This document shows, piece by piece, positions 7,193 to 63,287 of a stretch of 64,000 nt of DNA. Below the pieces are notes generated by a model that worked only from the letters and a program-made list of their open reading frames with translations, ran no database searches and was not told the DNA's origin. The position numbers and the translations under genes were made by a program. The first letter of the stretch is position 1. Each line of letters opens with the position of its first letter. This stretch comes from an uncultured Alphaproteobacteria bacterium (GTDB taxonomy: Bacteria > Pseudomonadota > Alphaproteobacteria > Rs-D84): positions 270,638 through 334,637 of the forward strand of contig CAKQTG010000002.1 of NCBI GenBank assembly GCA_934276735.1. The letters run 5' to 3'.

Positions 7193-7232
7193 GTAGTGAT
7201 AGAGTGACAAAGTGATAGAGTGATAAAGTGAA
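7188..7232. repeat. left inverted-repeat arm built of iterated GTGATA(R)A units
   Basis: agtgagtagtgatagagtgacaaagtgatagagtgataaagtg pairs with the reverse complement of 7592-7628. Confidence 0.6.
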
Positions 7233-7593: not shown

Positions 7594-7628
7594 CTTTATC
7601 ACTAAATCACTTTATCACTTACTCACTA
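7592..7628. repeat. right inverted-repeat arm
   Basis: cactttatcactaaatcactttatcacttactcact is the reverse complement of the iterated left-arm motif. A bidirectional terminator hairpin follows at 7629-7660. Confidence 0.6.
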
Positions 7629-16383: not shown

Positions 16384-16474
16384 AATCTTCCCTTTTGTTA
16401 TTGATATTGGACACGACCAATATAGCACCCCTGTTTTAATAATTCTAGTATGAATTACTCCAACAAGATTCTTA

Positions 16475-18495: not shown

Positions 18496-19387
18496 CTAAC
18501 TTTTTATTGATTATATCTTTGTAATGATCATACAATTCATATCCTACAAAATGTCTCTTGTTTTCTTTTGCAACTTTAAGTGTTGTTCCGCTACCCGCGA
18601 AAGGATCAAGTATCAATTCACCAACAAAAGAATACAATCTAATCAATCTGCGAGCTATTTCTTCAGGCATGATAGCTGAATGTATACCAAATGCAAGATC
18701 GCCTTTTCCAGGGATTGGTATGTTCCAAATCTGCTTTGTATATTCGACCCACTCTTGCTGTGTTAGCTGGCTGGCATCTTTTATATCCTGTGGCAACCCA
18801 TTTTCAGGACTTCCTTCTTTCACAAATACTACTATGAATTCACACGAATTCTGGGCATAAAAATTACGTGGATATGGATAACTGCCAAACATCAATTTCT
18901 TGGACGAATTTGTTCTGTTCCATATAAACAAATCCAATAAAAATAATTTTGTGTTTTTTAATATTGACTGTTGTATGTGACTCTGTAAATCAAATATGTC
19001 CCTGTTATAATGCGTGCACATTTGGGATTTCAACATCGGCATTAACGGAACATTTATGCACAACTTACCATTAGGCTTCAACACCCTTTCACATTCTTTC
19101 CAAATTTTTACTAAACCTGCGATATAATCATCAAAATCGGCATAAGCCCCCATATCATCACACTTCCTTTCAGAATGTTTACAATCTTGGTGACCATCTT
19201 TACTGTAATCTTTTATGTTAAAATATGGCGGTGATGTCACAATAACCTGAACCGAATTATCCGGCAATTCTGACATTTTTTCCGAACTTTTGTAGAAAAC
19301 TTTATCAATGTATTCTTTCATTTTCTTTCCTTGCTGAAAACTTAGCCCAAAACAATGGATAAAGTCAAGGGAACAATCAAAAAACAT
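18467..19387 (-). CDS. beta-class DNA methyltransferase (SPPY type, N4-cytosine or N6-adenine)
   Basis: Motif IV is VTSPPYFNIKDY and motif I is LDPFAGSGTT. It overlaps the next methylase gene by 29 nt. Confidence 0.75.
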   Translation of the reverse strand: MFFDCSLDFIHCFGLSFQQGKKMKEYIDKVFYKSSEKMSELPDNSVQVIVTSPPYFNIKDYSKDGHQDCKHSERKCDDMGAYADFDDYIAGLVKIWKECERVLKPNGKLCINVPLMPMLKSQMCTHYNRDIFDLQSHIQQSILKNTKLFLLDLFIWNRTNSSKKLMFGSYPYPRNFYAQNSCEFIVVFVKEGSPENGLPQDIKDASQLTQQEWVEYTKQIWNIPIPGKGDLAFGIHSAIMPEEIARRLIRLYSFVGELILDPFAGSGTTLKVAKENKRHFVGYELYDHYKDIINKKLGASDGLFGD

Positions 19388-20025
19388 ATAAGCCTTTGAT
19401 ATTATATAACACTTGAAAAAATTATTACTTTTGTGTACGATTTTATTGTTTGCCAGAGAGGTTCCTTTTTGGCTTGGTGCATTGCCGTAATACCTATTGA
19501 AAAGGGAGGCAATATAACATTGTGCCCGAGTCCGATGAGCTTGAACTCATCAAATAACAAAAAGGATGTCACCATGGTAAAATACCAAATTGGCAGAAGT
19601 GCTGTGACAGGACGTTTTGTACCAGTTAGGGCTGCGCAAAACAAACCTCGCACACACGTTGTTGAAACTATAAAGAAAAAGTAGTTTTAACGTTCTCTCC
19701 GGCAAACATTATACCACATTTTGACATTTATTTGTATAAAAAACTAAACACACATTAAAAAAATGAAAAAAAGACACATTTGATAACGAAATTGTGGACA
19801 TGATAAAAACCCTTGAATATTGTAAAGTCACCGCCCGCGCGAACATAATGACACACGGTTTGTTTTATAAAGAATTACAATATTACATACGCATTGGTTT
19901 TTATCCTTTTGATTTATGCCAATTCTAGCACACACCCAAAAAATGTCAATTTTTATATAATTTACAACAAATGAAAAAAAAAAACTTGAAATGCATAAAA
20001 AAAAATTATAAGATATGCGGGCTAT

Positions 20026-20101
20026 TCGGGCATAGTTCAGTCGGTAGAACAACGGACTGTTAATCCGTATGTCACTGGTTCGAGTCCAGTTGCCCGAGCC
20101 A
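20026..20101 (+). tRNA. tRNA-Asn (anticodon GTT)
   Basis: A cloverleaf can be drawn with acceptor TCGGGCA/TGCCCGA, D-arm GTTC-AGTCGGTA-GAAC, anticodon arm ACGGA-CTGTTAA-TCCGT and T-arm ACTGG-TTCGAGT-CCAGT. CCA is encoded. Confidence 0.85.
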
Positions 20102-20746
20102 CCTATTTCCGCAGATTTCTGCGGATTTTTTATTATCTATTCTCTACCACGTTTTTATGCAAAATTGGATGAAAGTTGCTCTAAATTGCCCTAGTTATAA
20201 AACAAAAACACATATTTGACACACAGTAATATATACTATTACTGCTGAAATCATCTCTGAAATCACACAGATTTCATACTTGAAACCATAGATGAAATCG
20301 TGATGGAATCATACCTGATTTCAGTATTGATTTCATACCTGAAAAGAGCCTTTTTTTGCCTGCGAAATATGGAACGCTATTCCGTCAGTCACAAAACCAA
20401 AACACACAAAAATCAAACAGTTATAAAAATACGATTTTTCCCCATGTGTCAAATATGTGTCTTTATTTTTGCACTTTTTTATTTTTGAATAAACAACTGG
20501 ACAAAGACAAAAAATAAGCACAAATGCAATGATTACTTAAAGTATTTATAAACGACAAATATCCAACCGGCCTAATAATAGCCCACCCCCAAAAAAAGCA
20601 AACGTGTTTTATATCGCTATGGGGTACAAAATTTACATAAAATATAACCTGCTTCCTCTTGAAAAATTTGAATTCGATCCTATATCTATCTGCACAAAGG
20701 AAGATTTTTATGCGTATATTTATAAACATAATCGGATATTGTACAG

Positions 20747-21262
20747 ATGGAGAATGGCATGCAACCAAAACACCAAGTGTTTTTTAGTTTTCATTTTGCC
20801 CGCGATGCCTGGCGAGCAGGTCAGGTAAGAAACATTAGAGATTTGGACGGCAATACGCCCGTGTCTGATAATGATTGGGAACAGGTTAAACGCGGCGGGG
20901 ATGCGGCGATTCGAACTTGGATAGAAAATCAATTGAAATACAAATCTTGTACAATTGTTTTGATAGGGACGGAAACTGCAAGTCGTCCATGGGTTAATTA
21001 TGAAATTAAGCGAAGTTGGGAGCTTGGCAAAGGCGTGTTGGGGATTTATGTGCATAATTTGCAAGACCGCATGTGCACTCAATCGCCCAAAGGGTCAAAC
21101 CCTTTTGCAAATTTTAATTTGAATGGTGTGCCTTTTGATAAAATTGTTCCAGTATATTGTGTCGAAGATTGGGAACCAAGCACAGAAGTTTATAAAAAAA
21201 TTGCCACAAATATTGGTTCGTGGGTGGAGAACGCAATTAGGATCCGGCAATTATACCCTTAA
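20747..21262 (+). CDS. TIR-like domain protein (DUF1863/MTH538-type, ThsB-like)
   Basis: The N-terminus VFFSFHFARDAWRAGQV and the segment CTIVLIG...SRPWVNYEIKRSWELGKG are hallmarks of the DUF1863 TIR-like family. Confidence 0.65.
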   Translation: MENGMQPKHQVFFSFHFARDAWRAGQVRNIRDLDGNTPVSDNDWEQVKRGGDAAIRTWIENQLKYKSCTIVLIGTETASRPWVNYEIKRSWELGKGVLGIYVHNLQDRMCTQSPKGSNPFANFNLNGVPFDKIVPVYCVEDWEPSTEVYKKIATNIGSWVENAIRIRQLYP

Positions 21263-21267
21263 CAGAT

Positions 21268-21921
21268 ATGGAGGAATATATGAGCAATTATTTTAATATA
21301 AAAGATTTCGATACACTTGAATTAAAATCACCCCCACGGCATTTTAATAATAGTTTTGCGTGTGACGAGTCGATTGGCAAACAGGGTGCGTATGATATAT
21401 TTATCTCCCATAGCTCTGCAAACAGGGAGCTTATCAGCAAATTACGGCAAGTTTTGGAAGAACGGTTTGGTTTGTCCGCATATATTGATTGGGATGAAGA
21501 TGGTGGTACAATAAGAGACGAAATTACAGAAAAAATAAAAAACGCTATGGATCGTTCTAAATCTCTATTATATGTAAAGACATCAGAATCTGACGACTCT
21601 CAATGGGTAGCATGGGAGGTAGGAAGGTTCGATGCAAAAAAACCAGATAATATTGCTGTCTTGCTTATTGAAGATGATAAATTTACCGAGGACACATGGC
21701 GACACAGAGAGTTTTTAAAGGATTATCAAATATTAGATAAAACAGATAATATTAAAGATTTTGTAAATATGGGACATAAAAAATTCTTCACTGCCAAACA
21801 AGCGCGCGACCTATCTTCTAAACTCAATTCTGGTGCAATCGCGGCAGTGGCTGCAATGGGGTCGTTATGCGATGTAACCCCCGGGTTAGGAACGCCAACG
21901 AAATACTTTGGTGACGAATAA
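21268..21921 (+). CDS. TIR domain protein (canonical bacterial TIR, ThsB-like)
   Basis: The sequence YDIFISHSSANRE...SAYIDWDE...SQWVAWEVGRF contains a candidate catalytic Glu in WEVG. The RBS is ggagg, and the gene is 5 nt downstream of the previous gene. Confidence 0.7.
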   Translation: MEEYMSNYFNIKDFDTLELKSPPRHFNNSFACDESIGKQGAYDIFISHSSANRELISKLRQVLEERFGLSAYIDWDEDGGTIRDEITEKIKNAMDRSKSLLYVKTSESDDSQWVAWEVGRFDAKKPDNIAVLLIEDDKFTEDTWRHREFLKDYQILDKTDNIKDFVNMGHKKFFTAKQARDLSSKLNSGAIAAVAAMGSLCDVTPGLGTPTKYFGDE

Positions 21922-21927
21922 TATAAA

Positions 21928-22458
21928 ATGAGAAAATTTACGAACACCAAACCCAGTTTATGGTATTTTAGACTTGCATTTGTAATTTTGAGCAGGTTCC
22001 CTAATTGTAAATGTCGCTGGGGTGCGAGAGACAAATTTATTATTTGGGAATATACGTATGTTTCACAAATAACACACAAGGCGTTCACGTTTTGTTTAAA
22101 TTACGAAATCTATCAAGAGCCTCGAATATGGGTTGTAGAGCCAGACCTTACACAACTTGCAGCTACAGAATTAAAACACGTTTATCCCCAACACTGCAAT
22201 CGTTTATGCTTGTTTCACCCCCACGATGCGCCATGGAATACACGCAAGGATATTATTAACACTATCATTACATGGGCGTTTTTATGGGTCGAATTTTATG
22301 AGTCCTGGAAAATTACAGGTTTTTGGTATGGAGCAGAGGCAGATCATACTCCAATACAAAAAACACACCAAAGCAATTTATCAAGGGAAACGCACCAGAA
22401 AAAACACTATAATAAAAATCTTCCTAAATATTTGAAAAACCATCCAATTAGATACTAG
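21928..22458 (+). CDS. hypothetical protein, third gene of the TIR operon (candidate effector)
   Basis: The 176 aa, Trp-rich product has no recognisable motif. It starts 6 nt after the TIR gene stop. Confidence 0.45.
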   Translation: MRKFTNTKPSLWYFRLAFVILSRFPNCKCRWGARDKFIIWEYTYVSQITHKAFTFCLNYEIYQEPRIWVVEPDLTQLAATELKHVYPQHCNRLCLFHPHDAPWNTRKDIINTIITWAFLWVEFYESWKITGFWYGAEADHTPIQKTHQSNLSRETHQKKHYNKNLPKYLKNHPIRY

Positions 22459-22569
22459 CCGTGTGTTTTATCGATATGACATTTGCTAACTTTTTACAAT
22501 CTTGTTTATAACCTCAATAAAACCATTCCCATTTTTCGCTGAATAAAGCCAGTGCTGTTTTTTTGCCTG

Positions 22570-23079
22570 TTATAGCTTTAGATGGCAGGTCCCTATTGTT
22601 GATAGGACATAATATACTACTAGTATCAATATGATAAAAAATGCAATCTTATAAACACTAAGCGATTTTGAGTTTAGAACATCTGACATACGAATGTACG
22701 TTTGTATATTTGCGATATTCATATCAAATAGAGCACATTTGTCCGCCAACGCATCGGTATATTTTTGGCGATAACACCGTTCCAGCCACAAATAATAAGC
22801 ATCAAACCAGAAAAAGCTAAGTGTCAATATAATTGCTAAAACAAGCAAGGCTACGTTTGGCAGTTTAAAATACAAAGCTATGAGTCCGCCGACAGAAACC
22901 ATAAACCAATTTTTTATCGAAAAGGAATTGCCATTCATTCTGGCAATAATATTCTGCAACATTTCTAAAAATTTAATTTTTTCGCTTTGCATACGATTAA
23001 CGATACTACACATCGATATAAATGCAAGTAAAACCAGAATTTTTGCACAAAAACCGGACTTCCGCAAAAAAACAAGCAC
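22570..23079 (-). CDS. small multi-pass membrane protein
   Basis: There are three to four hydrophobic helices across 169 aa. The start is ambiguous and could be 23079, 23010 or 22992. Confidence 0.4.
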   Translation of the reverse strand: MLVFLRKSGFCAKILVLLAFISMCSIVNRMQSEKIKFLEMLQNIIARMNGNSFSIKNWFMVSVGGLIALYFKLPNVALLVLAIILTLSFFWFDAYYLWLERCYRQKYTDALADKCALFDMNIANIQTYIRMSDVLNSKSLSVYKIAFFIILILVVYYVLSTIGTCHLKL

Positions 23080-23109
23080 AAATGCAACAACTTTTAAAGG
23101 GGTTGCATA

Positions 23110-23375
23110 TGAATTTCAAACATTTTGATGATATTAAACCAAATGATAAGGCACAATTTGAGATGCTATATTTTTCTGCCCAAAGGGCTTTAAGAAGGTT
23201 AGAACTTAAACTAAACAGGATTTATAACGGTAAAACGCCAAAACATTTGCGTATAGAATTAAAACAACTCAACCGCAAACTCACCCAAATGGCAGGCACA
23301 TGGAAAAATATATATTCCCCTTGCATTTACATAGAATTTTTTATATTCATTATGAATGAGAAAGAATACGTATGA
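23110..23375 (+). CDS. small hypothetical protein
   Basis: An RBS (aaagggg) lies 8 nt upstream. The 88 aa basic helical product starts MNFKHFDD.... Confidence 0.3.
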
Positions 23376-23431
23376 AACGGCTCTAAAATAGTTATTGATA
23401 TATTAAAAATATTTGTATATTAGGAGATATT

Positions 23432-23635
23432 ATGAAATTCGGAATCAGAACACCTTCGTTGAGTAAAAGAATTGCAGCAAGAACATCTTTAAAAAGAATT
23501 ATTAGACATAATTTGGGTGTTAAAGTTCCCAGAGGCTTCGGATGGATAACAAACCCTAAAAAAGCTGCCTATAACAGGGTATATAATAGAACCTCTATAA
23601 GCATCGATAAGCTATTCAAGAAAATCTTTAAATAA
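23432..23635 (+). CDS. small basic hypothetical protein
   Basis: A strong RBS (ttaggagatatt) precedes the ATG. The product is 67 aa and lysine/arginine rich. Confidence 0.35.
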   Translation: MKFGIRTPSLSKRIAARTSLKRIIRHNLGVKVPRGFGWITNPKKAAYNRVYNRTSISIDKLFKKIFK

Positions 23636-23650
23636 CATAGGAGTCAAGTT

Positions 23651-23884
23651 ATGAGTTCTACAATATGGCATTCAAATACAGAAGTTCCAGAAAATGGGGC
23701 TGATATTTTATGTATCGGCCATAACAGTAATGGCGACTTTATAATTTATGGCAAGGCAGAACATTATCAAAATAGTTTTTGTATTGTTGACAATGTAGAG
23801 GTTGAATATGCCACTGATATAGACAAGTGGTGTTATGCGAAAGATTTATTGGAATTATTAAAAAAAACTGACAGTTATAAATAA
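23651..23884 (+). CDS. small hypothetical protein
   Basis: The RBS is cataggagtcaagtt followed by ATG. The product is 77 aa. Confidence 0.35.
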   Translation: MSSTIWHSNTEVPENGADILCIGHNSNGDFIIYGKAEHYQNSFCIVDNVEVEYATDIDKWCYAKDLLELLKKTDSYK

Positions 23885-24141
23885 CCCATTAAAAATTCTA
23901 TAATATAACTATGATATGTTGGTACTAGGTACATCGTATATAACCGCATAAATTGCGGTTATATATTTAGTCGTTTTAAAGAACTTGAGAATTGAACGAG
24001 GCGCATAAACTCTCTTTCTTTATTTCAAAACAATTTGTTTTAGTATTTTACAGCTCCTCTAGTACACTTCTAATTTGCTCAGAAACGTTTAACCTGCCAA
24101 CGAGCCCCAGTAGTTTTTTTAAGAATTTGGGAAATTTAAGA

Positions 24142-25836
24142 TTATTTTGATAAGCGCACATCTATTAAATCTTTTATCTCGCTATTCTTGAATAAATTGT
24201 TATATGAAAATTTTGATCCAAGTTCTTCTTGCTTTTTGCTTGCTATATTTTTGACAACCTCTTCTGCTTTTTCTATATTTTTATTAAAAAGAGCCACAAC
24301 TTCTTTTTCTTGGATATTGGGAAGTTTTAAATTAGCTTCTATAGATGATAATGCATACATTATTGCATAAATAGCATGCGAAAAGAAAGTATCTGTTGCT
24401 GCTTTATTTTTTATTTCTTTCCAAACAATGTATGCGTTATACAATTTATTTTGTATATTATTTTCTAGTTCTTTTTCAGAAAAAACAGAATCAAAATACT
24501 GGTTAAAAACAGATATTTTTGACACCTTCGCTTTTCCCGGCTCATTCAAAAACATAGCCACATAAGCCTGTAATAAATTTTCATTAGTTATGCTATCATT
24601 ATAATCTGTTAGTTCCTGTCCAACTTTTACAATTAAAGCAACTCCCTTGGTTTTAAAATACAGAGCTACTTTTTCTTGAATAAGATCATTAGATTTTAAA
24701 TCAACAACATTGATTGGGTTTTGGGAATTTGTTGCTTGTGCTATTTGTTGCATAATATCAGGATCTTTAGTTTTATACACACGCAATAACACTTTCGCCT
24801 TACTTAATTGTTCATAATTTTGTGATTCCCGATAAAATTTTGATAAAGCAGCAACGGTTTGCCCACCGTTAACTATACTCGGGCGCGTCAAAGTCAAGTT
24901 TATTTTTTCCTTATTACCTGTATGACCAGTTTTATAATCATCTGCTATAATTGTAATACCATTATTAAAAAACCAAAACAGTTCTGGTTTTTCACTTGCT
25001 GTTTTAATAATTTCTTTATTAATTTTACTTTTAGGCAAAAGATATCTCACATTGGAATTCAACAAAGCACCTTCATTGTTTTGTTTATAAAAATCAACTA
25101 AGTCACTTAAATATACTTCGGTTATAAACCCCGTTATAACCTGTGGTAAATCTTGTTTTAGAGTTTTGTCATCACAAATAATTTTTATTGTCGCACTATC
25201 AGGAACCTTCTCTTTTAATCCAAAATTTGTACTATCTATAAAATTTACATTTATCTCGTTGTTTATAGCTGTTTCTACAGCATCAGATTGCTTTAACACT
25301 TCCCCAATTATACCATTCGTTGAAAAGAAAACATGTACTCTGAGAGTAGGCCAATCATTTTGCTCACAAACCTCTCTAAGTTTATCAAGTTTTGATTTTA
25401 GCAACAAATTTGTAGTAGATAAATTCTCGCCCTTTTTTATTTTTTCTACGTTTTTTAGACATAATTCTATTTCATCTTGTGTAAATGTATTTTTGGCCTT
25501 TTTAGAAACGTGTTTGGCTTGTACTACAATCACATCCATAAATTTTTCATTAGAATTTGGCAGGGACACTATACTTTCATCATCAAAATATAGCAAATCT
25601 ATTTTGTTATCGCCACTGCCGTCCGTTAAGAAACAAATCGAAGAATTTATATCTACTTTTTTATATTCCATTATAGTAACTACAGCAGTAGCCAAAGAGT
25701 TAATATATTCTTTGTTTTGCAAACCTTGCCCATAATGCTTTTTAGCATATTCAGACTTTTTTATTAGCTTAGTGTTATCTTCTATTAGTCTATTAAATTT
25801 ATTTAAAGCATATTCATTTATGGAGGCATTAGACAT
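24142..25836 (-). CDS. AIPR family abortive-infection protein
   Basis: The N-terminal region reads CFLTDGSGDNKIDLLYFDDESIV, resembling the AIPR DGSGDxGID core. The gene is 564 aa and starts 10 bp after the R gene stop. Confidence 0.6.
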   Translation of the reverse strand: MSNASINEYALNKFNRLIEDNTKLIKKSEYAKKHYGQGLQNKEYINSLATAVVTIMEYKKVDINSSICFLTDGSGDNKIDLLYFDDESIVSLPNSNEKFMDVIVVQAKHVSKKAKNTFTQDEIELCLKNVEKIKKGENLSTTNLLLKSKLDKLREVCEQNDWPTLRVHVFFSTNGIIGEVLKQSDAVETAINNEINVNFIDSTNFGLKEKVPDSATIKIICDDKTLKQDLPQVITGFITEVYLSDLVDFYKQNNEGALLNSNVRYLLPKSKINKEIIKTASEKPELFWFFNNGITIIADDYKTGHTGNKEKINLTLTRPSIVNGGQTVAALSKFYRESQNYEQLSKAKVLLRVYKTKDPDIMQQIAQATNSQNPINVVDLKSNDLIQEKVALYFKTKGVALIVKVGQELTDYNDSITNENLLQAYVAMFLNEPGKAKVSKISVFNQYFDSVFSEKELENNIQNKLYNAYIVWKEIKNKAATDTFFSHAIYAIMYALSSIEANLKLPNIQEKEVVALFNKNIEKAEEVVKNIASKKQEELGSKFSYNNLFKNSEIKDLIDVRLSK

Positions 25837-25846
25837 TTTATTTACC

Positions 25847-26743
25847 TTACCTTAATAGCCCTTCCAACACACCTTTTTGAACCATGTCGATGTTAAGGAT
25901 ATAATCTGTTGTATCAAAAGTATCGCGTAACGGTCGCTGAGTTTTCTGCCAGCCTAAACCATCCGTTATCCATATAAACTGGTGCCCGTCTTTTGTCCAC
26001 TGATGATAAATATCTGCATATTCGCCTGCGGTTGATTTTAATTTTGATCCGCCACCGCCATAGAAATTTGTTTCTATCAGATATAGTTTATTAGGGGTAT
26101 TTATAGCAAAATCAACACGCTTGGATGATTTATTCACAATAATATTTTTACTCCATTTTCTATAAATTTTATCTGCTGTCGCCTGCGCAATATATTCATA
26201 ACCATTACGGTCACAAATATCTTTTATAAAATATTCCATCAAGTTTTCCATTGATGTGCCACTGCGGTTCTTGCGCCCATTTGAATCAAGTCCAACTTCT
26301 ACACCAAGAAAATAATCTGGTATAGATTTAATTGTACGGTCAGATACTAAATCAAGGAAGCCACTTGCTTTCATAAATAGGACACCATCCTCTGCAGACA
26401 TAGGCTTTGAAAAGTCAAAGCATTTAAGTCCAAAAGTTTTTATATCTGAAACAAGTTTAATTTTCTTTTCTCTATCGGCTAACAGTGCCGGTATAACACC
26501 TATAATTTTTGGATATTCCTTTAATAAATCTTTTGCTGCTTTTTCAACATCCGCCTTACCAATCAGAGTATTCAATAAGTTTAGTGCAATCTCTGCTTCG
26601 TGATAATTATTGATAACTTTTGACCAGTTAACAAAATAATCCCAAGATGTTATACTTTCTTTTAGGGTTGAAATCAAATAACCAAAAACGTCATCTTCGT
26701 TCTTGCAGCCCAAAAGTTCATCAAAAATTTTAGAATACTTCAT
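25847..26743 (-). CDS. Type II restriction endonuclease, DpnII/MboI-like (GATC-type system inferred)
   Basis: This is the third gene of a Dam-like M / beta-class M / R cassette with the same order and similar sizes to dpnM-dpnA-dpnB. It overlaps the upstream methylase gene by 4 nt. The product is 298 aa. Confidence 0.5.
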   Translation of the reverse strand: MKYSKIFDELLGCKNEDDVFGYLISTLKESITSWDYFVNWSKVINNYHEAEIALNLLNTLIGKADVEKAAKDLLKEYPKIIGVIPALLADREKKIKLVSDIKTFGLKCFDFSKPMSAEDGVLFMKASGFLDLVSDRTIKSIPDYFLGVEVGLDSNGRKNRSGTSMENLMEYFIKDICDRNGYEYIAQATADKIYRKWSKNIIVNKSSKRVDFAINTPNKLYLIETNFYGGGGSKLKSTAGEYADIYHQWTKDGHQFIWITDGLGWQKTQRPLRDTFDTTDYILNIDMVQKGVLEGLLR

Positions 26744-27525
26744 TTTATTCCTTTCTTTTCAAGGATATCATACAGCCTTTTTTCTGCCAATTCAACAAAT
26801 TGCGTTTCCTGTTCTATACCGACAAACATTCTGTCATATTTTAATGCCGCAACCCCAGTTGTACCACTGCCCATAAAAGGATCTAATATTAAATCGCCCA
26901 GATTTGTACAACATAAAATTATTCTTTCCAATAAATCCAAAGGCTTTTGTGTTGGATGCTTGCCAAAAGTTTTTTCTGATTTTGATGGCGTTGGAATAGA
27001 CCAAACACTGCGCATCTGGCAATCTGGCTTTTTCAAAATATCTTTTGGGAATGAACCACATTTCATGGCATCGTAATTAAATATATGTTTCGCGTTCTTA
27101 CTTTTTCTCGCCCAGATAAGTGTTTCATGGCTCGCGGTAAAGTATCTACAAGACATATTTGGACTAGCATTTGGTTTATACCACGCAACATCATTTAATA
27201 TATGAAAGCCCAACAACTGCATTGCAAAGCCACATGAGTATATACTGTGGTATGTACCACTTATCCAAATTGTGCCATTTGGTTTTAACACTCGCCAGCA
27301 TGCAGAAAGCCACTTTTTATGAAACTCAAAATCATTCATCAGTCCGTGCGACTCGTCCCACTTGCCTTTATTAACCGATACAACTTGACCATTTTGGCAC
27401 GTTATCCCCCCATTTGACAACATATAAGGCGGATCCGCAAAAATCATATCAAAGGTATTTTCTGGAATCTTTTCCAGACACGTTAAGCAATCTTCACAAT
27501 AAAGGCGAAAAGGTTTCTTAGTCAT
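26740..27525 (-). CDS. beta-class N6-adenine DNA methyltransferase (DpnA-like)
   Basis: Motif IV is IFADPPYMLSNGG near the N-terminus and motif I is LDPFMGSGTTGVAA near the C-terminus. Confidence 0.8.
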   Translation of the reverse strand: MTKKPFRLYCEDCLTCLEKIPENTFDMIFADPPYMLSNGGITCQNGQVVSVNKGKWDESHGLMNDFEFHKKWLSACWRVLKPNGTIWISGTYHSIYSCGFAMQLLGFHILNDVAWYKPNASPNMSCRYFTASHETLIWARKSKNAKHIFNYDAMKCGSFPKDILKKPDCQMRSVWSIPTPSKSEKTFGKHPTQKPLDLLERIILCCTNLGDLILDPFMGSGTTGVAALKYDRMFVGIEQETQFVELAEKRLYDILEKKGIK

Positions 27526-28450
27526 AATTAGTTATCAATAACTCACGAATAGCACTGCGCCCGTCTGCATTTGCATTTATCAAACGCTTTGCAAGTATTC
27601 TATTTATATTATAGTCTTGGTATAAATCATCAAAGAATGTGTCTTTTATATAATTTGTTGGATCAGAATTACTTAACATTTGTAAAGCACCCGCTTTATC
27701 ACACGCTTCAAAAACATTCTTAAGGCGAATTTGCTCATCATCATTAAAATCCCCAACAGCATAAGAATTAAACGAAGATGTTTTTCTAATCGGGCGATAT
27801 GGTGGGTCGTAATAGATAAACGTATCTTTATTTACATACTCTTGAACAGAACTAAAATCTGTTTGGATAATAGTCGCAATCTGTAAAGCGTCTGATACAT
27901 TGCGCAAATTTTCTGCGTCTAATATTCTTGGGTTGGTATACTTACCCATCGGAACATTAAACATATTTTTCGAATTAACACGAAACAATCCATTAAAACA
28001 CGTTCTGTTTAAGAATATGGTCAACGCTACACGTCTGACAAACCGCTGATTATAAATATTTGCATCGACGGTTTTGTCCATGTTGTTATATTCATCACGC
28101 CTTGCGTAATAATATTCTTTTTTATCTTCTGTATGATTATACTCTGCACTTATTTTTGTCAGTTCAACTATCAATTTTTCAACATCATGTTTGATAACAT
28201 TATACAGAATAACCAACTCAGGATTGATATCAAACAAGAAAGCCTCTTTGATTGAGAACCGATTATAAATATCGAAGAACACAGCCCCACCACCAACAAA
28301 GGGTTCTATGTATCTTTTTATCCCACCCATTTTCAATTTTAAGGGCAGTTTTTCATCGATTTTATCTAATAGCTGTCCCTTGCCCCCTGCCCATTTTAAT
28401 ACAGGTTTGCACTCAATATAATCCGCTAATTTTGCTGGCAGTGGTGACAA
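27518..28450 (-). CDS. Dam-family (alpha-class) N6-adenine DNA methyltransferase (DpnM-like)
   Basis: Motif I is EPFVGGGAVFFDI near the N-terminus and motif IV is IYYDPPYRP. The Dam family recognises GATC. Confidence 0.8.
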   Translation of the reverse strand: MSPLPAKLADYIECKPVLKWAGGKGQLLDKIDEKLPLKLKMGGIKRYIEPFVGGGAVFFDIYNRFSIKEAFLFDINPELVILYNVIKHDVEKLIVELTKISAEYNHTEDKKEYYYARRDEYNNMDKTVDANIYNQRFVRRVALTIFLNRTCFNGLFRVNSKNMFNVPMGKYTNPRILDAENLRNVSDALQIATIIQTDFSSVQEYVNKDTFIYYDPPYRPIRKTSSFNSYAVGDFNDDEQIRLKNVFEACDKAGALQMLSNSDPTNYIKDTFFDDLYQDYNINRILAKRLINANADGRSAIRELLITNYD

Positions 28451-28671
28451 TTTTTCCTTTCCTTTACGATTTGATATTACAAAATCACGCCACCTAAATC
28501 CAGTAGTTATTTTTTACTTGTGGTTGTTTTTAATTGCTTTTGATTACTTTAAAAACTTTGAACAAAAACACACAGAAACACATAGAAATAGTACACAGCC
28601 GATGTCACCACAAACAAAAAAATCCAAGTTTTCTGCGGAATTCAGCCATTTTTGAAAAAATTGTACAATTC

Positions 28672-28728
28672 ACTGTTAATCTGTATGTCACTGGTTCGAG
28701 TCCAGTTGCCCGAGCCACAAATTCCAGG
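28672..28728 (+). repeat. direct repeat of the tRNA-Asn 3' half (att-type island boundary)
   Basis: The 47 nt sequence actgttaatctgtatgtcactggttcgagtccagttgcccgagccac matches tRNA positions 20056-20102 with one mismatch. Confidence 0.8.
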
Positions 28729-44385: not shown

Positions 44386-44392
44386 CAAAAAA

Positions 44393-44425
44393 TAAAAAAC
44401 GCGCCAATGGCGCGTTTTTTTATTC
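44393..44425. terminator. bidirectional rho-independent terminator
   Basis: aaaaaacgcgccaatggcgcgtttttttatt lies between the convergent ackA and rph genes. Confidence 0.6.
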
Positions 44426-48291: not shown

Positions 48292-48299
48292 CCCCACCG

Positions 48300-48880
48300 C
48301 CCCGTCCGGGGCGGTCGTCTTTTTTCCAGAGAGCAGAGAGCAATGAAAGAGTCCGCATTCGCGGACAACTCTAATGACCTGGATTCTGGGGTCAAGCCCC
48401 AGAATGACAAAGGCTGGACATAGATTTTATTTTATGAACATTGTTCACTTTTATATCGCAAGCCTTTTCTTAGGTGTCATTCTGGGGCTTGACCCCAGAA
48501 TCCAGGTGATAATGTCGCACACAGTGCGTGCTTATTGTCATTCCTGCGCAGGCAGGAATAGGGTCCAGGCAGTGCGAGCGATGCGAGCCGTGTCCGAGCA
48601 ATTGCGGATTTTATTATTGGTGACTAATTGCCGAATTACGACCAACCAAGGGAACACAATGGACCCCGGCCTGCACCGGGGTGACGCTGGTGTGTGGTTG
48701 GGCGCCATATTTTACGAACATTGTGCAACAATGAGCAAAAGTAATTTCTTAGGCCCTATTCCTGCCTGCGCAGGAATGACAAGTTTTTAAGTTCTCTATT
48801 CTAAAACTAAATCACTTTATCACTCTGTCACTTACTCACTTTATCATTGCTCTCTGCGCATTGCTCTCTGTAATTTGTAA
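48300..48880. repeat. composite nested inverted-repeat (MITE-like) element
   Basis: The outer pair is cagagagcagagagcaatg (48318) against cattgctctctg (48845-48870). Palindromes ttctggggtcaagccccagaa occur at 48383 and 48479. The pair gtcattcctgcgcaggcaggaatagggtc (48538) and ggccctattcctgcctgcgcaggaatgac (48749) is also inverted. The right end carries the cactttatcac motif of the 7.2 kb cassette. Confidence 0.6.
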
Positions 48881-48916: not shown

Positions 48917-50968
48917 ATGAATGCGGAACTGTTGGATTTTTTGAAAACCGACCTGCAATTCGTCAAGGGCGTGGGCCCCGTTCTGGCCGCGCGTTTTGAC
49001 GATGTATTGGGCGGACGGCGCGTGCTGGATTTTATGCTGCATATCCCGGCATACATTCGCGCACGCGGCGTTACCGAATGCGTGGCGGACGCAACGCCGG
49101 GCGAAACACTGATAATCCCGTTACAGGTAAAATCCCACCGTCGTGGTCGCACATTTCGCGGTCGCCGTATTCCGACCCAGATTATTTGCAATGACCGCAC
49201 GGGTGGCACGGTCACGTTACAGTTTTTTAATACGCATTTCTTGGATTACTGGTTGGAAAAATTGCCGATTGGCGCGTGGCGTATGGTCAGCGGGAAACTG
49301 GAAAAATCCGCACGCCCCACAATCAATCATCCGGACTTTATCGAACCCATGGAAAATGCCGCACGCATTCCGTCGATCCAGGCGATTTACCCATCTGGCG
49401 AGGGGTTGACCCAGAAAACATTTGCCGCCGTTCGGGACCAGATTTTTACCGCCCTGCCCGATAAATTGGCGGGCGAGACAGATGAAAACGTGCGCGAATT
49501 CTTTGATGCGATTGCGCATGTGCACTACCCAGAATCCAACGATGATTTAATGCCAAATGCCAAATATATTGTGAAATTGGCGTATTGGGAATTACTGGCG
49601 CACCAGACCGCCATCGCAATCAGCCGGCGCAACCGCCGCGACCCGCGCAATCGACGCACTGTGCGCCCATTAAAATACAATCTAATGGATAAATTCCGTG
49701 CGATATTACCATTTGCATTGACTGGCGCACAACAGCGCACAATTGATGAAATTTTTGCCGATATGGCGGCTCCAGTGCCAATGATGCGACTGGTTCAGGG
49801 TGATGTCGGCAGTGGAAAAACCATCGTTGCCATGGCGGCGGCGGTACGCATGGCAGAAATGGGCGGTCAGACGGCAATGCTGGCCCCGACAGATGCCTTG
49901 GCGTTGCAACACTATAATAAATTGAAACCTATGTGCGATAAAATCGGCATTGTGTGCGACATATTGACCGGTCGGGACAAAGGCGCGGCGCGACGTGAAA
50001 AACTGATATCATTGCGTTCTGGGCGCACGCGACTGGTTATCGGAACGCATGCACTGTTTTCAGACGATGTTGAATATCGCGATTTGGGATTGGTCATTGT
50101 GGACGAACAACACCGTTTTGGTGTCACCCAGCGCGAGGCCCTGCGTGCCAAAGGCACGAACCCAGATTTGGTGGCGTTGTCGGCGACACCGATTCCACGA
50201 ACGTTGTCTATGACAATATATGGTGACATGGACGTATCTGTCATAAATGAAAAGCCTGCAGGCCGTCTGGCCATCAAGACAACAAAACTGCCGATTTCAC
50301 GTATTGGCGACCTGGTTGCACGCATATCGGCACAAATTGCCACCGGGGCCAAGGTGTTTTGGGTTTGTCCCTTGGTCGAAGATAGCGAAGACGCACCCGC
50401 GGCCGCCGCTACCGCACGATATGAAGACTTAAAGAGATTTTTTCCAACTGCCGGCCTGGTTCATGGTCAAATGGATAAAAAGCAGCGTGACGCCACAATG
50501 GCAAAATTTGCCGATGATAATTCTGATATGTCATTGCTGGTTGCCACCACTGTCATAGAGGTTGGCATTGACGTCCCACGCGCAACAATTATGGTGATTG
50601 AAAACGCCGAACGTTTCGGATTGGCCGCCCTGCACCAGTTGCGCGGTCGTGTCGGACGCGGCAATACCCAATCGTATTGCGTGCTGTTATTTGGGAAAAC
50701 AACGGAACACGGAATGCAACGCTTGGACGTATTGTGCGCAACCGACGACGGATTTGCAATCGCAGAACAAGATTTAATGATGCGTGGCACAGGTGAATTG
50801 ATTGGCACACGTCAAAGCGGTTGGATAAACTATCACTTTGCTGATTGGCGCGAACATCGCGACCTGTTCCGCATGGCGGCAAATGCCGCCCGTGACCAGG
50901 CCACCACTGACACCTGGGCACGTGATCTAATGTTTATATTTGACCGGGGGGCACAAATCAGTGCATAG
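48917..50968 (+). CDS. recG: ATP-dependent DNA helicase RecG
   Basis: The wedge/OB domain is followed by helicase motifs GDVGSGKT, DEQH and ATPIPRT. Confidence 0.85.
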   Translation: MNAELLDFLKTDLQFVKGVGPVLAARFDDVLGGRRVLDFMLHIPAYIRARGVTECVADATPGETLIIPLQVKSHRRGRTFRGRRIPTQIICNDRTGGTVTLQFFNTHFLDYWLEKLPIGAWRMVSGKLEKSARPTINHPDFIEPMENAARIPSIQAIYPSGEGLTQKTFAAVRDQIFTALPDKLAGETDENVREFFDAIAHVHYPESNDDLMPNAKYIVKLAYWELLAHQTAIAISRRNRRDPRNRRTVRPLKYNLMDKFRAILPFALTGAQQRTIDEIFADMAAPVPMMRLVQGDVGSGKTIVAMAAAVRMAEMGGQTAMLAPTDALALQHYNKLKPMCDKIGIVCDILTGRDKGAARREKLISLRSGRTRLVIGTHALFSDDVEYRDLGLVIVDEQHRFGVTQREALRAKGTNPDLVALSATPIPRTLSMTIYGDMDVSVINEKPAGRLAIKTTKLPISRIGDLVARISAQIATGAKVFWVCPLVEDSEDAPAAAATARYEDLKRFFPTAGLVHGQMDKKQRDATMAKFADDNSDMSLLVATTVIEVGIDVPRATIMVIENAERFGLAALHQLRGRVGRGNTQSYCVLLFGKTTEHGMQRLDVLCATDDGFAIAEQDLMMRGTGELIGTRQSGWINYHFADWREHRDLFRMAANAARDQATTDTWARDLMFIFDRGAQISA

Positions 50969-52342: not shown

Positions 52343-53935
52343 ATGTTACGTTACATGCGCCGTGTTTTATCGGCAATTTGTTGTGTTGCATTGATTATGG
52401 CGATGACAATCATTACATCGCCCGTGCCAGCAACCGCCGCGTCACCATCTGAACCAGTGACATCTGTCACGACCAGCCCCGCTGTCAATGTGAACTATGT
52501 TCACGGTGCAATAAATTCATATTGGGGGATTGATATACCGCCCAACGCCGCCATCTCTGACACCAAGAACGCCGTAAACATGAAATACTTGCTGGGCATG
52601 GTGGACATCGCGAATGCGCGCCTGGGGACAACAACATCATATGGCACGGGCGAATATGCAACGTCTGGTGCGGCATCACAGAACACGGCCAATACCGCAA
52701 TAAAAACACTGATACGGCACAGTTATCCATTTACAATAACGACCACATCAACAAACAGTTTTTCGTTTAATATCAGTGCCAGCGGCCTGTTCTATATTGA
52801 CTGGGGCGACGGCACCAAAATACAGCAAATCGTCAAAACCGATACCAATCCCCAAACAATCAGCCACACATACACGTCAACCGGTGCGCATACGATAAAA
52901 ATGGGCGGCCGTGCGACCGGGTATTCTGCGTCGGCGGCAATCAGTTTTGCCCAAAACACCATGCTGGCCAAAATCAGTGGCAGTCTGGGGCGCATATTCA
53001 TAACCCTGGGTGACGGCACACAGCCCAGTTTTTCGTCGGCATTTATGGGTTGCACCAATTTATCTGGCAGCATACCGGCCGAATTATTCGCAGGTATATC
53101 GGGCGCGCCCCGCACATCTATGTTCGAAGATACGTTTAACGGGTGCGTGGGCCTGACTGGGGCGATTCCATCGGGGCTGTTTTCTGGCATAACCGGCGCA
53201 CCAGCGACATTGATGTTCAAGCATACTTTCTATGGCTGCACGGGATTGACCAGTATTCCGTCCGGACTGTTTGCGGGGATTTCTGGCACCCCACAGAGCA
53301 GTATGTTCAACGGCACATTTTACGGTTGCACCGGACTGCGCGGGGCGGTGCCATCTGGGCTGTTTTCGGGCATTACCGGCGCGCCAGCATACGCAATGTT
53401 TCACGAAACGTTTTATGGATGTTCGGGTCTGACATCAATTCCAGCCAACCTGTTTGCAAGGGTATCGGGCGCACCCGCAGGATTGATGTTTAAAAATACT
53501 TTTTATGGATGTAGTGGCCTGACCAGTATCCCGTCGGGACTCTTTGCCGGCATCAAAGGTGCACCCGCCAGCAGTATGTTTAACAGCACATTTGCAAATT
53601 GCACGGGGCTGACCAGTATTCCATCGGGATTATTTGCCAGCGTCAACGGTGCGGCCGCCAGTGCGATGTATTACAGCACGTTTTCAGGGTGCACGAAACT
53701 CTCGGGTCAAATACCCGTGGGCGTGTTCGGCACCCTGTCGGGGTCCCCGGCCAGTTTGATGTTCAAACAGACATTTTCTGGGTGCAGTGGTCTGACCGGG
53801 CCATCGGCGCGCAATCCAAATGGCACATATTTGTATAATGTATTTTCCAGCGCAACCGCATCGCACGTTGGCTCGATGTATTACGGGGTCAAGAGCCTGT
53901 CTGACTATTCATCCATCCCCACCGCATGGAAATAG
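52343..53935 (+). CDS. BspA-type leucine-rich-repeat surface protein
   Basis: There are about twelve tandem ~23 aa repeats of the form F(Y/N)GCTGLTSIPSGLF(A/S)GI(S/T)GAP.S.MF..TF, fitting the LRR_5/BspA pattern. The N-terminus is hydrophobic. Confidence 0.6.
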   Translation: MLRYMRRVLSAICCVALIMAMTIITSPVPATAASPSEPVTSVTTSPAVNVNYVHGAINSYWGIDIPPNAAISDTKNAVNMKYLLGMVDIANARLGTTTSYGTGEYATSGAASQNTANTAIKTLIRHSYPFTITTTSTNSFSFNISASGLFYIDWGDGTKIQQIVKTDTNPQTISHTYTSTGAHTIKMGGRATGYSASAAISFAQNTMLAKISGSLGRIFITLGDGTQPSFSSAFMGCTNLSGSIPAELFAGISGAPRTSMFEDTFNGCVGLTGAIPSGLFSGITGAPATLMFKHTFYGCTGLTSIPSGLFAGISGTPQSSMFNGTFYGCTGLRGAVPSGLFSGITGAPAYAMFHETFYGCSGLTSIPANLFARVSGAPAGLMFKNTFYGCSGLTSIPSGLFAGIKGAPASSMFNSTFANCTGLTSIPSGLFASVNGAAASAMYYSTFSGCTKLSGQIPVGVFGTLSGSPASLMFKQTFSGCSGLTGPSARNPNGTYLYNVFSSATASHVGSMYYGVKSLSDYSSIPTAWK

Positions 53936-57666: not shown

Positions 57667-59937
57667 ATGAGCAAGAAAAAACTTTTTATCGCAACAGTCT
57701 GTGCAATCGCCACCACTGGCGCGACCGCGGCAACGGTTTCGCGCATTGATGTTACCGGCGCACGCCGCATGGACAGTGAATCTATCCGTATTCTGTCGGA
57801 CGTGAAAATCGGCGACAACGTGGGCGAGGCACGCGCCAACGAAATCGCCAAGAAATTACAGGAAAGCGGATATTTTTCGCGTATCAACGTCCGCATGTCT
57901 GGGAACGTGTTAAAAATTGACGTGACCGAGGCACCGACCGTCAACATGGTCACGGTCGAAGGCAACGATGAAATTTCCACCGACGATTTAAAGAAAGAAA
58001 TTCGCCTGAAGGAACGTGCGTCATACGATGAATCCGTCATCGGTGCTGATACCCAGCGGATGCTGACCATATACCAGCGCAAGGGTTTCTTTGGCACCAA
58101 GATAGAGCCCAAGAAAATCGAACTGGACGACAACCGCGTAAATGTCGTCTATGAAATTACCGAAGGTCACCCGACGTATATTACAAAAATTGAATTTGCC
58201 GGCAACAAACATTTCCGTTCCAGCGTATTGCGCGGTGCAATTCTGTCGCGCGAACACGCGTGGTGGCGTTTTATGACGCAATTTGATGTCTTTGACGAAG
58301 ACCGTATCCAGTATGACCAGCAGTTGTTGCGTCAGTATTATCTGCGCAATGGTTATGCTGATGTCCAGATAACCGACACAACGGGGGTATTCACACCTGA
58401 CCGACAATACTATTCTGTGAAATTCACGATTGACGAAGGGGAAAAATATAAATTCGGCAAACTGGGTGTGGACAATCCGTTCGATGATGTCCCAGACAGC
58501 GAACTGATGGACGCGATGAAAATGTCGCGTGGCGATACATATAACGTGGACAAGGTAGAAGAAACGATTTCTGCCCTGCGTGGGGTTGTTGCCGATCATG
58601 GATATGCGTTTATCAATGTTGAACCAATTCCGACCAAGGATGACGAAAATCGCACAATTGGTATGACGTTCAAGATACACAAGACCAATCGTGTTTATTT
58701 GAATTCTATCAATATCCTGGGCAATGTTCGCACGTTTGACACGGTGATTCAGCAACTGATTCCGATGCGACCGGGCGATCCTTTTTCCCTGCAAACGATT
58801 GAACAGGGTCGCCAGAATTTGATGCGCACCCGCTATTTCAAAGATGTCCAGATGGTCCCGACACGCGTCGCGGATGCGAACATGATGAATTTGGATATCA
58901 AGGTCGAAGAACAGCCGACCGGCGAATTATCCGGTGGTTTTGGTTGGTCAAACATCAACGGTTTTATGGTTGATGCCGGCATTACCGAGAGTAATTTTAT
59001 GGGTCGTGGCCAAACGGTGCAATTGCGCGGATCCATTGCGCAATACCAGAAACAGGCATTGTTCAGTTTTACCGAACCATATCTGTTTGGTCGCGCGCTG
59101 TCTGGTGGATTCGATGTGTCATACACAATGTATAACTATTCATCACTGGGCGGGTTTGGATATGACCGTGATTCATTGACACTGGCGACACGTATGGGGT
59201 GGCGTTTGACCGATAACTGGACCCAGAGTGTGCGCCTGTCCGCATCATTTGACCAGAACTATGACCTGCAACTGGGCAGCCAGTGGCGTAATTCCAACCT
59301 GTATACATTGGGAACATATTTAAAATATTATAACCTGGACACCAATTTCCAACAGAACACGCACACCGGCGTTGTGGCGAATTTGGGCCTGGCGTATACC
59401 GGGTTTGGTGGCACCGAAACATTTATGCGTTACAGTGCGGACATAACCGGTATGGTAAAATTCCTGAATGACCGGTGGCAGTTGCGTTCGTCGCTGGATT
59501 TCGGTTATATCCAGCCACTGGATGGCGATTATGTATCCCGTGTGTATCGTTATTTCTTGGGCGGGGAATCACTGCGCGGGTTTGATATTGCCGGCGTCGG
59601 CAGCCGTAACTGGTATTACCAATCATACTCATTGGGTGGCATGTGGAAATTGAACGGATCAACCCAGTTGAATTTCCCGGTATTTATCCCCGACGAATAC
59701 CAGATAAAAGGATTTGTGTTCGCAGATTACGGTCTGTTGGGCAAACCGCCACGTGATGAATACACATATCTGGGGCGTGACAACTTTATTGACAGCGACC
59801 TGCGCACATCGGTTGGTTTTGGTGTTTATTGGAATACCCCAATGGGTCCGATGAATTTCAGCTGGGGCTGGCCATTGAAACTGAACAAATATGACCAGGA
59901 ACAGCGTTTCTTACTGTCATTTGAAACACAATTTTAA
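57667..59937 (+). CDS. bamA: outer membrane protein assembly factor BamA
   Basis: There is a signal peptide, POTRA repeats and a C-terminal 16-strand barrel ending ...LLSFETQF. A terminator follows at 59938-59965. Confidence 0.85.
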   Translation: MSKKKLFIATVCAIATTGATAATVSRIDVTGARRMDSESIRILSDVKIGDNVGEARANEIAKKLQESGYFSRINVRMSGNVLKIDVTEAPTVNMVTVEGNDEISTDDLKKEIRLKERASYDESVIGADTQRMLTIYQRKGFFGTKIEPKKIELDDNRVNVVYEITEGHPTYITKIEFAGNKHFRSSVLRGAILSREHAWWRFMTQFDVFDEDRIQYDQQLLRQYYLRNGYADVQITDTTGVFTPDRQYYSVKFTIDEGEKYKFGKLGVDNPFDDVPDSELMDAMKMSRGDTYNVDKVEETISALRGVVADHGYAFINVEPIPTKDDENRTIGMTFKIHKTNRVYLNSINILGNVRTFDTVIQQLIPMRPGDPFSLQTIEQGRQNLMRTRYFKDVQMVPTRVADANMMNLDIKVEEQPTGELSGGFGWSNINGFMVDAGITESNFMGRGQTVQLRGSIAQYQKQALFSFTEPYLFGRALSGGFDVSYTMYNYSSLGGFGYDRDSLTLATRMGWRLTDNWTQSVRLSASFDQNYDLQLGSQWRNSNLYTLGTYLKYYNLDTNFQQNTHTGVVANLGLAYTGFGGTETFMRYSADITGMVKFLNDRWQLRSSLDFGYIQPLDGDYVSRVYRYFLGGESLRGFDIAGVGSRNWYYQSYSLGGMWKLNGSTQLNFPVFIPDEYQIKGFVFADYGLLGKPPRDEYTYLGRDNFIDSDLRTSVGFGVYWNTPMGPMNFSWGWPLKLNKYDQEQRFLLSFETQF

Positions 59938-59981
59938 AAACGGGGCATTCGCCCCGTTTTTTATTGTCATAAATAAATCTG

Positions 59982-62993: not shown

Positions 62994-63026
62994 TCAAGTA
63001 TAAAAACGGGGCGTCTGCCCCGTTTT

Positions 63027-63287
63027 TTATTTTATCACGGCGGTTTTTATTAACGACACATCATCGCGAATTGTATCCAGTTTTATCTGTAATTGACCGA
63101 TGCCAGTTTCCAATATCGTCGTCCGATTTTCCAGCGTGGTAATACGCGTGTCGGCGCGTTGAATGTCCGCCAATGACGAATCCTGGCGTGCAACCCAATA
63201 AATCAAGCCGCCGATAAACGCGATTAAAAACCAACTGTCGCGCAGGGTCGCGATAATACCGCCCAGGGCATTTGATTCCTGTTTCAT
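63027..63287 (-). CDS. small TM and coiled-coil protein (phage-like)
   Basis: An N-terminal TM helix is followed by a coiled coil (ITTLENRTTILETGIGQLQIKLDT). Confidence 0.3.
   Translation of the reverse strand: MKQESNALGGIIATLRDSWFLIAFIGGLIYWVARQDSSLADIQRADTRITTLENRTTILETGIGQLQIKLDTIRDDVSLIKTAVIK

Follow-up and report, generated by a model that had tools for sequence, protein, structure and literature searches.

Background

The closest described relatives of the locus analysed here are short repeats of Neisseria and a cassette found in rRNA genes. In the NIME arrays of Neisseria, dRS3 inverted repeats separate RS segments of 19-214 bp (PMC1797815). NTS-like hairpins, described as Ssn-related motifs (SRM), occur across bacteria and flank genes for 94-aa single-domain GIY-YIG proteins, SsnA (Chenal et al. 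2025, PMC11893778); in single-stranded DNA, SsnA binds the hairpin of one strand but not of the other, the C after the stem being the position most critical for binding, and cuts a few nucleotides upstream, and in N. meningitidis this cutting lowers transformation by NTS-bearing DNA. An Ssn gene is recognised there as a single-domain GIY-YIG gene of type cd10448 that is usually flanked by the motif (PMC11893778). The third system is the intervening sequence (IVS) with an S23p ORF: that of the Coxiella burnetii 23S rRNA is 428 nt long, with a 28-bp terminal stem and tandem heptamers whose number varies between strains, and S23p cassettes of this kind are excised by RNase III (PMC4990558).

We compared these systems with the DNA between rng and recG in the window, the whole stretch of 64,000 nucleotides that was analysed, which belongs to an uncultured human-gut bacterium. 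The comparison suggests that this intergenic block is probably a non-coding, non-autonomous, NIME-like mosaic of SRM hairpins, set in an IVS-type shell and spread by recombination, in which we infer a part for cutting by an Ssn-type enzyme.

Anatomy of the rng-recG element

The element occupies the intergenic gap between the gene for a Rne/Rng-family ribonuclease (rng, TIGR00757, 46498-48291) and recG (48917-50968). An earlier note had described some 580 bp before recG as non-coding, organised as concentric inverted repeats and resembling a decayed or hitch-hiking MITE-like repeat. No gene was found there; the DNA is instead a repeat mosaic, in which a shell of inverted arms built of 7-, 8- and 14-bp units surrounds AT-rich modules joined by five strand-oriented hairpins. 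Its parts are as follows, with the strand given where the part is oriented.

48296-48325, plus strand: terminator-like hairpin and T-run after the RNase E/G stop codon, partly similar to the left flank of the L139 copy
48327-48345: left outer arm, CAGAGAG-CAGAGAG-CAATG, of tandem heptamer-type units; the L007 copy has one additional 14-bp unit
48348-48372: small GC hairpin h1 (GTCCGC-ATTC-GCGGAC, hairpin 48351-48366), -7.3 kcal/mol, which follows the left arm in most copies
48374-48409, minus strand: SRM hairpin A (minus strand TGTCAT-TCTGGGG-CTTGA-CCCCAGA-ATCCAGG), recognised by an SRM pattern match at 48379-48409, by its fold and by covariation
48410-48474: AT-rich core module of 65 nt (TTTTATGAACATTGTTCA...TTTCTTAGG), the equivalent of a NIME RS segment
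48475-48510, plus strand: SRM hairpin A', with an SRM pattern match at 48475-48505, present at 11 metagenome loci
48516-48528: small GC hairpin h2
48535-48563, plus strand: hairpin B, a dRS3/NTS-like variant (GTCATTCCTGC-GCAG-GCAGGAAT) followed by A, not C
48564-48658: spacer module of the B unit, including a 17-bp patch at 48629-48645
48659-48686, minus strand: SRM hairpin C (CGTCACCCCGGTGCAGGCCGGGGTCCAT), nested in the B unit and recognised by pattern match and fold
48687-48753: spacer module with a second copy of TATTTTACGAACATTGTGCA...TTTCTTAGG
48754-48782, minus strand: hairpin B', the inverted partner of B
48783-48848: conserved right module (TTCTCTATTCTAAAACT) and an array of five octamers (TCACTNNA, 48806-48848), 95% identical to the L177 copy
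48845-48870: right outer arm, two copies of CATTGCTCTCTG, a 14-bp tandem unit

The nest of inverted repeats spans 48327-48870. Its outer pair sets CAGAGAGCAGAGAGCAATG at 48327-48345 against CATTGCTCTCTG at 48845-48856 and again at 48859-48870, forming terminal inverted repeats (CAGAGAGCAATG / CATTGCTCTCTG) of 12-19 nt; within it, the 36-nt arms A/A' (48374-48409 and 48475-48510) are 97% complementary, the 29-nt arms B/B' (48535-48563 and 48754-48782) are 100% complementary, and the spacers between hairpins measure 65, 24, 95 and 67 bp. By comparison with dinucleotide shuffles the outer, A/A', B/B' and octamer motifs all lie far above chance, the outer-arm motif having 3 matches where 0.13 are expected. 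The nesting described by the earlier note holds for the outer pair, which encloses the rest, but not for A/A' and B/B', which lie side by side and are not concentric with each other; similarly, both of its 'ttctgggg...' copies are present, but the second is the reverse complement of the first and the loop is not self-complementary. The SRM hairpin at 48659-48686 and the small GC hairpins at 48351-48366 and 48516-48528 had been overlooked.

Folded as single-stranded DNA, the whole 552 nt reaches -141 kcal/mol with the outer stem formed, against -67 +/- 4.8 kcal/mol for shuffles (z = -15.4), and the region holds nine terminator-like hairpins where 1.3 are expected. A nested fold of this stability, together with the excess of terminator-like hairpins, could also be read as serving RNA: transcripts reading through from rng would fold, RNase III would cut the outer stem as it does in the rRNA IVS, and the stability of the rng 3' end and the expression of recG would be insulated or tuned in consequence. 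The arms do resemble those of S23p cassettes that RNase III excises (PMC4990558), and an RNase III gene lies in the genome neighbourhood. We nevertheless consider an RNA-level role improbable: an intrinsic terminator stands ahead of the element, most related contigs lack the element and it is therefore dispensable, and SsnA is inactive on RNA (PMC11893778). Rfam gave only sub-threshold matches to microRNA precursors, attributable to the long A/A' hairpin, and assignment to an Rfam RNA family was rejected on that account.

Most of the element is spanned by an ORF (48374-48790, plus strand) of 138 aa, uninterrupted and with an ATG start, and a 97%-identical ORF is called in L007. These features would suit a real gene, yet the ORF matches no Pfam or NCBIfam family, and its only relatives among database proteins, six in number, are all read-throughs of sister repeats that cover it partially. 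In other copies the similarity to the ORF is scattered over frames and both strands, the longest ORFs having 60-115 aa and lying in other frames; the ORF also matches its own reverse strand, and each of the five codon differences from L007 is non-synonymous in the window. The existence of a gene here is refuted for practical purposes, and the view of the earlier note that the ORF reads through the palindromes is upheld: the ORF and its database relatives are annotation artefacts. Exact-protein records were found for none of the 138-aa ORF, ComM, the outer-membrane protein and the four-helix-bundle protein, and a literature search on peptides encoded by such hairpins (RFRGND, IPAFAGMT and others) returned nothing.

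Identity of the hairpins

The published SRM pattern, HGTCWYN(0-2)YYVSBRHN(0-5)WNVSBRGN(0-2)RNCYNB (PMC11893778), has three matches in the 64 kb of the window, where shuffled sequence gives a mean of 0.11; the three are hairpins A, A' and C, all in the region. Each is oriented, with a 5' GTCAT head, a stem of 8-9 bp, a loop of 4-5 nt and a C after the stem. The SRM-type hairpins fold as single-stranded DNA at -7.9 to -9.1 kcal/mol, and A, B and C take the same shape as the Neisseria NTS. Hairpins B and B' fall outside the pattern at one position of the stem and in the 3' flank, where A follows the stem. In sequence, B is the dRS3/NTS hairpin of Neisseria (CGTCATTCCCGCGMAVGCGGGAATCYRG), altered by a compensated C:G to T:A change, so that its stem has CCT/AGG, not CCC/GGG. 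Exact dRS3 (ATTCCC-N8-GGGAAT) has no match in the window, nor have NTS and NTSvar even at three mismatches. For an interpretation in terms of Ssn enzymes, the A that B and B' carry where C matters most for SsnA binding is a caveat for these two hairpins.

A scan of metagenomes for hairpin A returned 11 loci. Across the 11 variants, 99% of the cells of the 9-bp stem are paired and four of the nine base pairs show double compensatory changes, a degree of covariation reached by none of 500 shuffles. The description of the element as decayed is not borne out. Compensatory changes maintain the hairpin stems; covariation of this kind can also stem from copying of one arm onto the other without functional selection.

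The B-type hairpin is widespread: in a scan of one genome per species it was present in at least 120 genome stretches from many phyla, where about four are expected by chance. Its polarity is strong, with C after the palindrome in 138 of 145 copies and a G at the start of most loops, among the matches listed. A 99-aa GIY-YIG ORF in a Pirellulales MAG (L095) lies between two B-type hairpins in '> <' orientation, spaced 9 nt from the one before it and 7 nt from the one after it; B and B' of the window have the same orientation around a non-coding interior, in which tblastn detected no remnant of GIY-YIG coding sequence even at E = 50. The window, and about 430 kb of partly redundant related loci, yielded neither an Ssn/GIY-YIG gene nor a transposase or RAYT gene.

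Several observations were made in passing. Among viral contigs from IMG/VR, 33 stretches (L144-L176) contain the B-type SRM hairpin, several of them more than once. In Flavobacteriaceae bacterium GF1 (L049, 6500-8000), five tandem 300-bp units with two SRM-type hairpins each end beside a GIY-YIG gene, and the units resemble repeated copies of the 3' end of that gene together with its hairpins. Short periodic repeats (6-9 bp) near SRM hairpins were seen at just 5 of the 120 loci listed, a 2.7-fold enrichment that was too weak to retain such repeats as a general companion of SRM across phyla. A four-helix-bundle gene lay near a B-type hairpin at one of the 120 diverse loci listed, at a distance of 5.5 kb.

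Clustered, oriented hairpins that form mosaic arrays beside terminators and leave no target duplication also recall a REP/BIME-type cluster, kept by a RAYT or by an IS200/IS605-type Y1 enzyme acting on hairpins in single-stranded DNA, and Chenal et al. themselves draw the parallel with REP/BIME (PMC11893778). In L095, however, the gene immediately bordered by this hairpin type encodes a GIY-YIG protein and not a Y1 enzyme, and no Y1 transposase domain was detected among the scanned ORFs or in the precomputed Pfam lists. The head is GTCAT and C follows the stem, which is the signature of SRM, whereas the head of REP is reportedly of GTAG type (Nunvar et al. 2010). Maintenance by a RAYT or Y1 enzyme is therefore very unlikely.

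Filled and empty alleles at rng-recG

Related loci were looked up through the identical RNase E/G protein in 23 contigs, from human-gut metagenomes and the MAG GCA_900771395.1. In seven of the eight places listed that encode the identical protein, rng and recG are separated by a gap of 75 bp, and the site is empty in most related contigs; the element is carried by the window, by L007 and by L140, whose contig is 100% identical to the window and ends inside the right arm. The empty allele has a terminator only (AAAACCGCCCCACCTGGGGCGATTTT). In the filled allele this is exchanged for another terminator-like hairpin, after which come about 550 bp before the sequence rejoins that of the empty allele at TCTGTAATTTG, so that the difference between the two is a replacement in which the native terminator has been swapped, not a clean insertion. 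Since the terminator sequence at 48296-48325 is unlike that of the empty allele, it may be part of the imported block.

Between the window and L007, the differences are the additional 14-bp arm unit of L007 and nine substitutions in the 17-bp patch at 48629-48645. The L007 version of the patch resembles the L178 copy, so the version in the window is the odd one; the difference may reflect gene conversion. Mutagenesis in the style of a DGR was rejected as its source because the substitutions are not adenine-specific.

A family of mosaic copies

Related copies, 77-95% identical, recur at about a dozen further sites among related gut metagenome assemblies, some of them (L177-L181) reached through the contigs of the protein relatives of the 138-aa ORF. 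Two copies (L135 and L139) lie on one contig, OJAW01000001.1 (349,228 bp), which, from its identical length, we infer to be also the contig of L008, empty at rng-recG, in a stretch that does not overlap L135 or L139. Copies are 300-560 bp long and share a common order (alignments A2 and A5): a terminator in most copies, the left arm, h1, A, the 65-nt core, A', h2, an optional B unit, the octamer arm and the right arm. Identity to the L177 copy, which lies upstream of rplU, is 93% over the A unit and 95% at the right end, and the B unit is 85% identical to that of L178; other copies match the window at 77-81% identity across the element only, their flanks being unmatched. Further family copies are present in L178, L179, L180 and L181, and in L177 (7130-12105) a 760-aa gene and rplU-rpmA are surrounded by three family arrays within 5 kb. 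One of these sister arrays contains a canonical dRS3 core (GTCATTCCCGCGTAGGCGGGAAT, 7175-7197). The block at rng-recG is an accessory allele beside the rng terminator, with sister copies at many sites.

Two observations on the surroundings of these copies may be added. The L177 arrays also contain a further SRM type, CGTCATACCGGCGCAGGCCGGTATCCAT. Stereotyped intrinsic terminators of the form AAAAACGGGGC-N4-GCCCCGTTTTTT occur in the window at 787-823, 44388-44424, 59929-59965 and 62995-63031, and in most copies inspected members of the repeat family directly adjoin terminators of this type.

The alignments of the copies show that modules have been swapped between them exactly at the hairpins, as in the NIME arrays of Neisseria. 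In L178, B' stands in place of the window's A beside the same core module, and a stem-compensated variant (CGTCATACCGG...CCGGTATCCAT) occupies the position of hairpin C; the window, L177 and L178 have B units whose hairpin ends agree and whose interiors differ.

The resemblance to MITEs noted earlier is real in that the family is multi-copy and strain-variable, and the earlier interpretation is supported as essentially right. A classical MITE would be the deletion derivative of an IS with a DDE transposase, moved in trans by cut-and-paste through the ends CAGAGAGCAATG / CATTGCTCTCTG; the 12-19-nt terminal inverted repeats, the length of 300-560 bp, the many loci and the presence/absence polymorphism would all suit such an origin. 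A target-site duplication at the element ends, for which the earlier note had suggested looking, was absent, and in the alignments none of the five inspected copies (those of the window, L131, L136b, L139 and L177) has a direct repeat where it joins its flanks. Because of this, and because the terminal repeats consist of tandem short units in variable number (one more in L007), the element is very probably not a classical MITE. The native terminator is moreover replaced, not interrupted; no transposase was detected in the window or the related loci, the left arm has no match in IMG/VR viral contigs, and a parent IS with the same ends was found neither in the related loci fetched nor in IMG/VR. 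Overall, movement as a classical MITE is unlikely. Arrival by recombination would account both for the replaced terminator and for the lack of a target duplication, although a mobile unit that carries a terminator of its own may also produce such a replacement.

The S23p cassette and the inverted-arm shell

The right end of the element belongs with the arms of a second cassette in the window, as the earlier note had recognised from the octamers at 7.2 kb.

7188-7627, plus strand: S23p/four-helix-bundle cassette, with octamer arms at 7188-7231 and 7592-7627 around a 121-aa ORF (7228-7593)

The 121-aa ORF matches both TIGR02436 and PF05635, and the cassette is situated between comM and an outer-membrane protein gene, with its octamers (AGTGATAR) in inverted arrays. 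The octamer array at the right end of the rng-recG element is 84% similar to these arms, being complementary to 7188-7231 at that level over 44 nt. The tie is reinforced by the comM locus of relatives, reached through the signal-peptidase gene: in L141-L143 the cassette is absent, and the spacer between comM and the outer-membrane protein gene holds in its place a terminator, the left arm of the rng-recG family, h1 and one octamer, so that the site alternates between the cassette and a mini-element with the left arm. In L136a the left arm is followed by an octamer arm in reverse orientation, a layout that suggests a symmetrical two-tier shell. The element at 48.3-48.9 kb itself contains no S23p ORF (PF05635, TIGR02436).

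The last codons of comM differ between the cassette-bearing and cassette-less alleles. In a Candidatus Berkelbacteria sequence (L054, 6373-6884), a homologue of the four-helix-bundle/S23p gene is flanked by a perfect 24-nt inverted repeat built of short units of AATGATGA type; the design is that of the window cassette, and the arm sequence is unrelated.

A more ambitious reading would unite the inverted-arm shell, the S23p cassette and the SRM modules in one cassette-exchange system, in which terminator-proximal 'landing pads' accept alternative cargos (the S23p gene at comM in the window, the mini-element at the same site elsewhere, the SRM modules at rng-recG) and an Ssn-type nuclease drives the exchange by cutting the hairpins. 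We regard this reading as doubtful. If it were true, it would account for how NIME-like arrays get built, and Ssn would be the enzyme behind a new class of elements whose movement or recombination is directed by hairpins.

Other features of the window

The window also contains a defence island (16400-28500), with two N6_N4 DNA methylases (17704-19387), two ThsB/TIR proteins (20747-21921), an AIPR protein (24142-25836) and a complete DpnII-type cassette made up of an endonuclease (25847-26743), an N6_N4 methylase (26740-27525) and a Dam-like methylase (27518-28450). Most of the island is bracketed by a direct repeat of 111 nt (19997-20107 and 28613-28723, 74% identity). At 53237-53637, a 38-nt unit occurs four times, the second to fourth copies at 90-nt spacing, probably within a gene for a repeat-containing protein.

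Comparison with described systems and a proposed mechanism

The hairpins of the rng-recG element resemble the SRM/NTS described by Chenal et al. (PMC11893778) in that they are oriented and GTCAT-headed, with C after the stem in A, A' and C, and in being intergenic and clustered; three copies match the published pattern, and in another phylum (L095) hairpins of this type stand on either side of a GIY-YIG gene. They differ from them in the stem and 3' flank of B and B', in giving no match to NTS or NTSvar, in having no ssn gene found nearby, in lying within an inverted-repeat shell and in their host, an uncultured human-gut bacterium. Because the hairpins are SRM of NTS/dRS3-like type, the closest analogue of the whole is a NIME-type mosaic. 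As in NIMEs, hairpin repeats of 20-30 bp separate AT-richer modules (24-95 bp here), modules are exchanged at hairpin joints, the content of the arrays varies between strains, and the arrays adjoin genes, several of which arrays can surround one gene (L177). Unlike NIMEs, the window has no exact dRS3, several types of hairpin in place of one, outer inverted arms and a far lower density, at one array per 64 kb.

The shell, in turn, is like the S23p IVS: terminal inverted repeats close a long stem, tandem hepta- or octamers vary between strains, and the arms belong to the same sequence family as those around the genuine S23p ORF at 7.2 kb. The 48.3-kb element differs in lacking an S23p ORF, and neither of the two window elements lies in rRNA. 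With MITEs, Correia elements and REP/BIME the element shares its short, non-coding, multi-copy, palindromic and insertion-polymorphic character; it differs from MITEs and Correia elements in having no target-site duplication and no matching IS found, and from REP/BIME in its GTCAT head and in the lack of a detected RAYT.

For the recombination-spread SRM mosaic that we favour, the following course of events may be proposed. As double-stranded DNA the block would be essentially inert. When the DNA becomes single-stranded, during uptake, replication or repair, the hairpins would extrude, and an Ssn-type GIY-YIG single-strand endonuclease encoded elsewhere could then recognise them as signals to bind and cut; the cognate enzyme of the host organism is hypothetical. 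The hairpins would thereby become hot spots of cutting and rejoining, at which modules may be shuffled and the recombination of incoming DNA around rng and recG modulated. The allele itself would have arrived, and would move between strains, by homologous recombination of the flanking DNA, not by cut-and-paste transposition. To our knowledge, cutting of single-stranded DNA by Ssn and the lowering of transformation have been shown in Neisseria only, and we know of no demonstration that Ssn mobilises or shuffles repeats.

SRM/NTS hairpins and Ssn nucleases were described only in 2025, and the rng-recG locus provides a natural low-copy example of SRM from a human-gut bacterium in which filled and empty alleles coexist. 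Its value lies in hairpins that are visible as the joints between modules, in stems that covary and in a shell held in common with an S23p gene cassette, by which the locus links two classes of 'selfish' small element that were previously handled separately. Hairpins A, B and C are testable substrates for the question of whether Ssn enzymes build mosaics.
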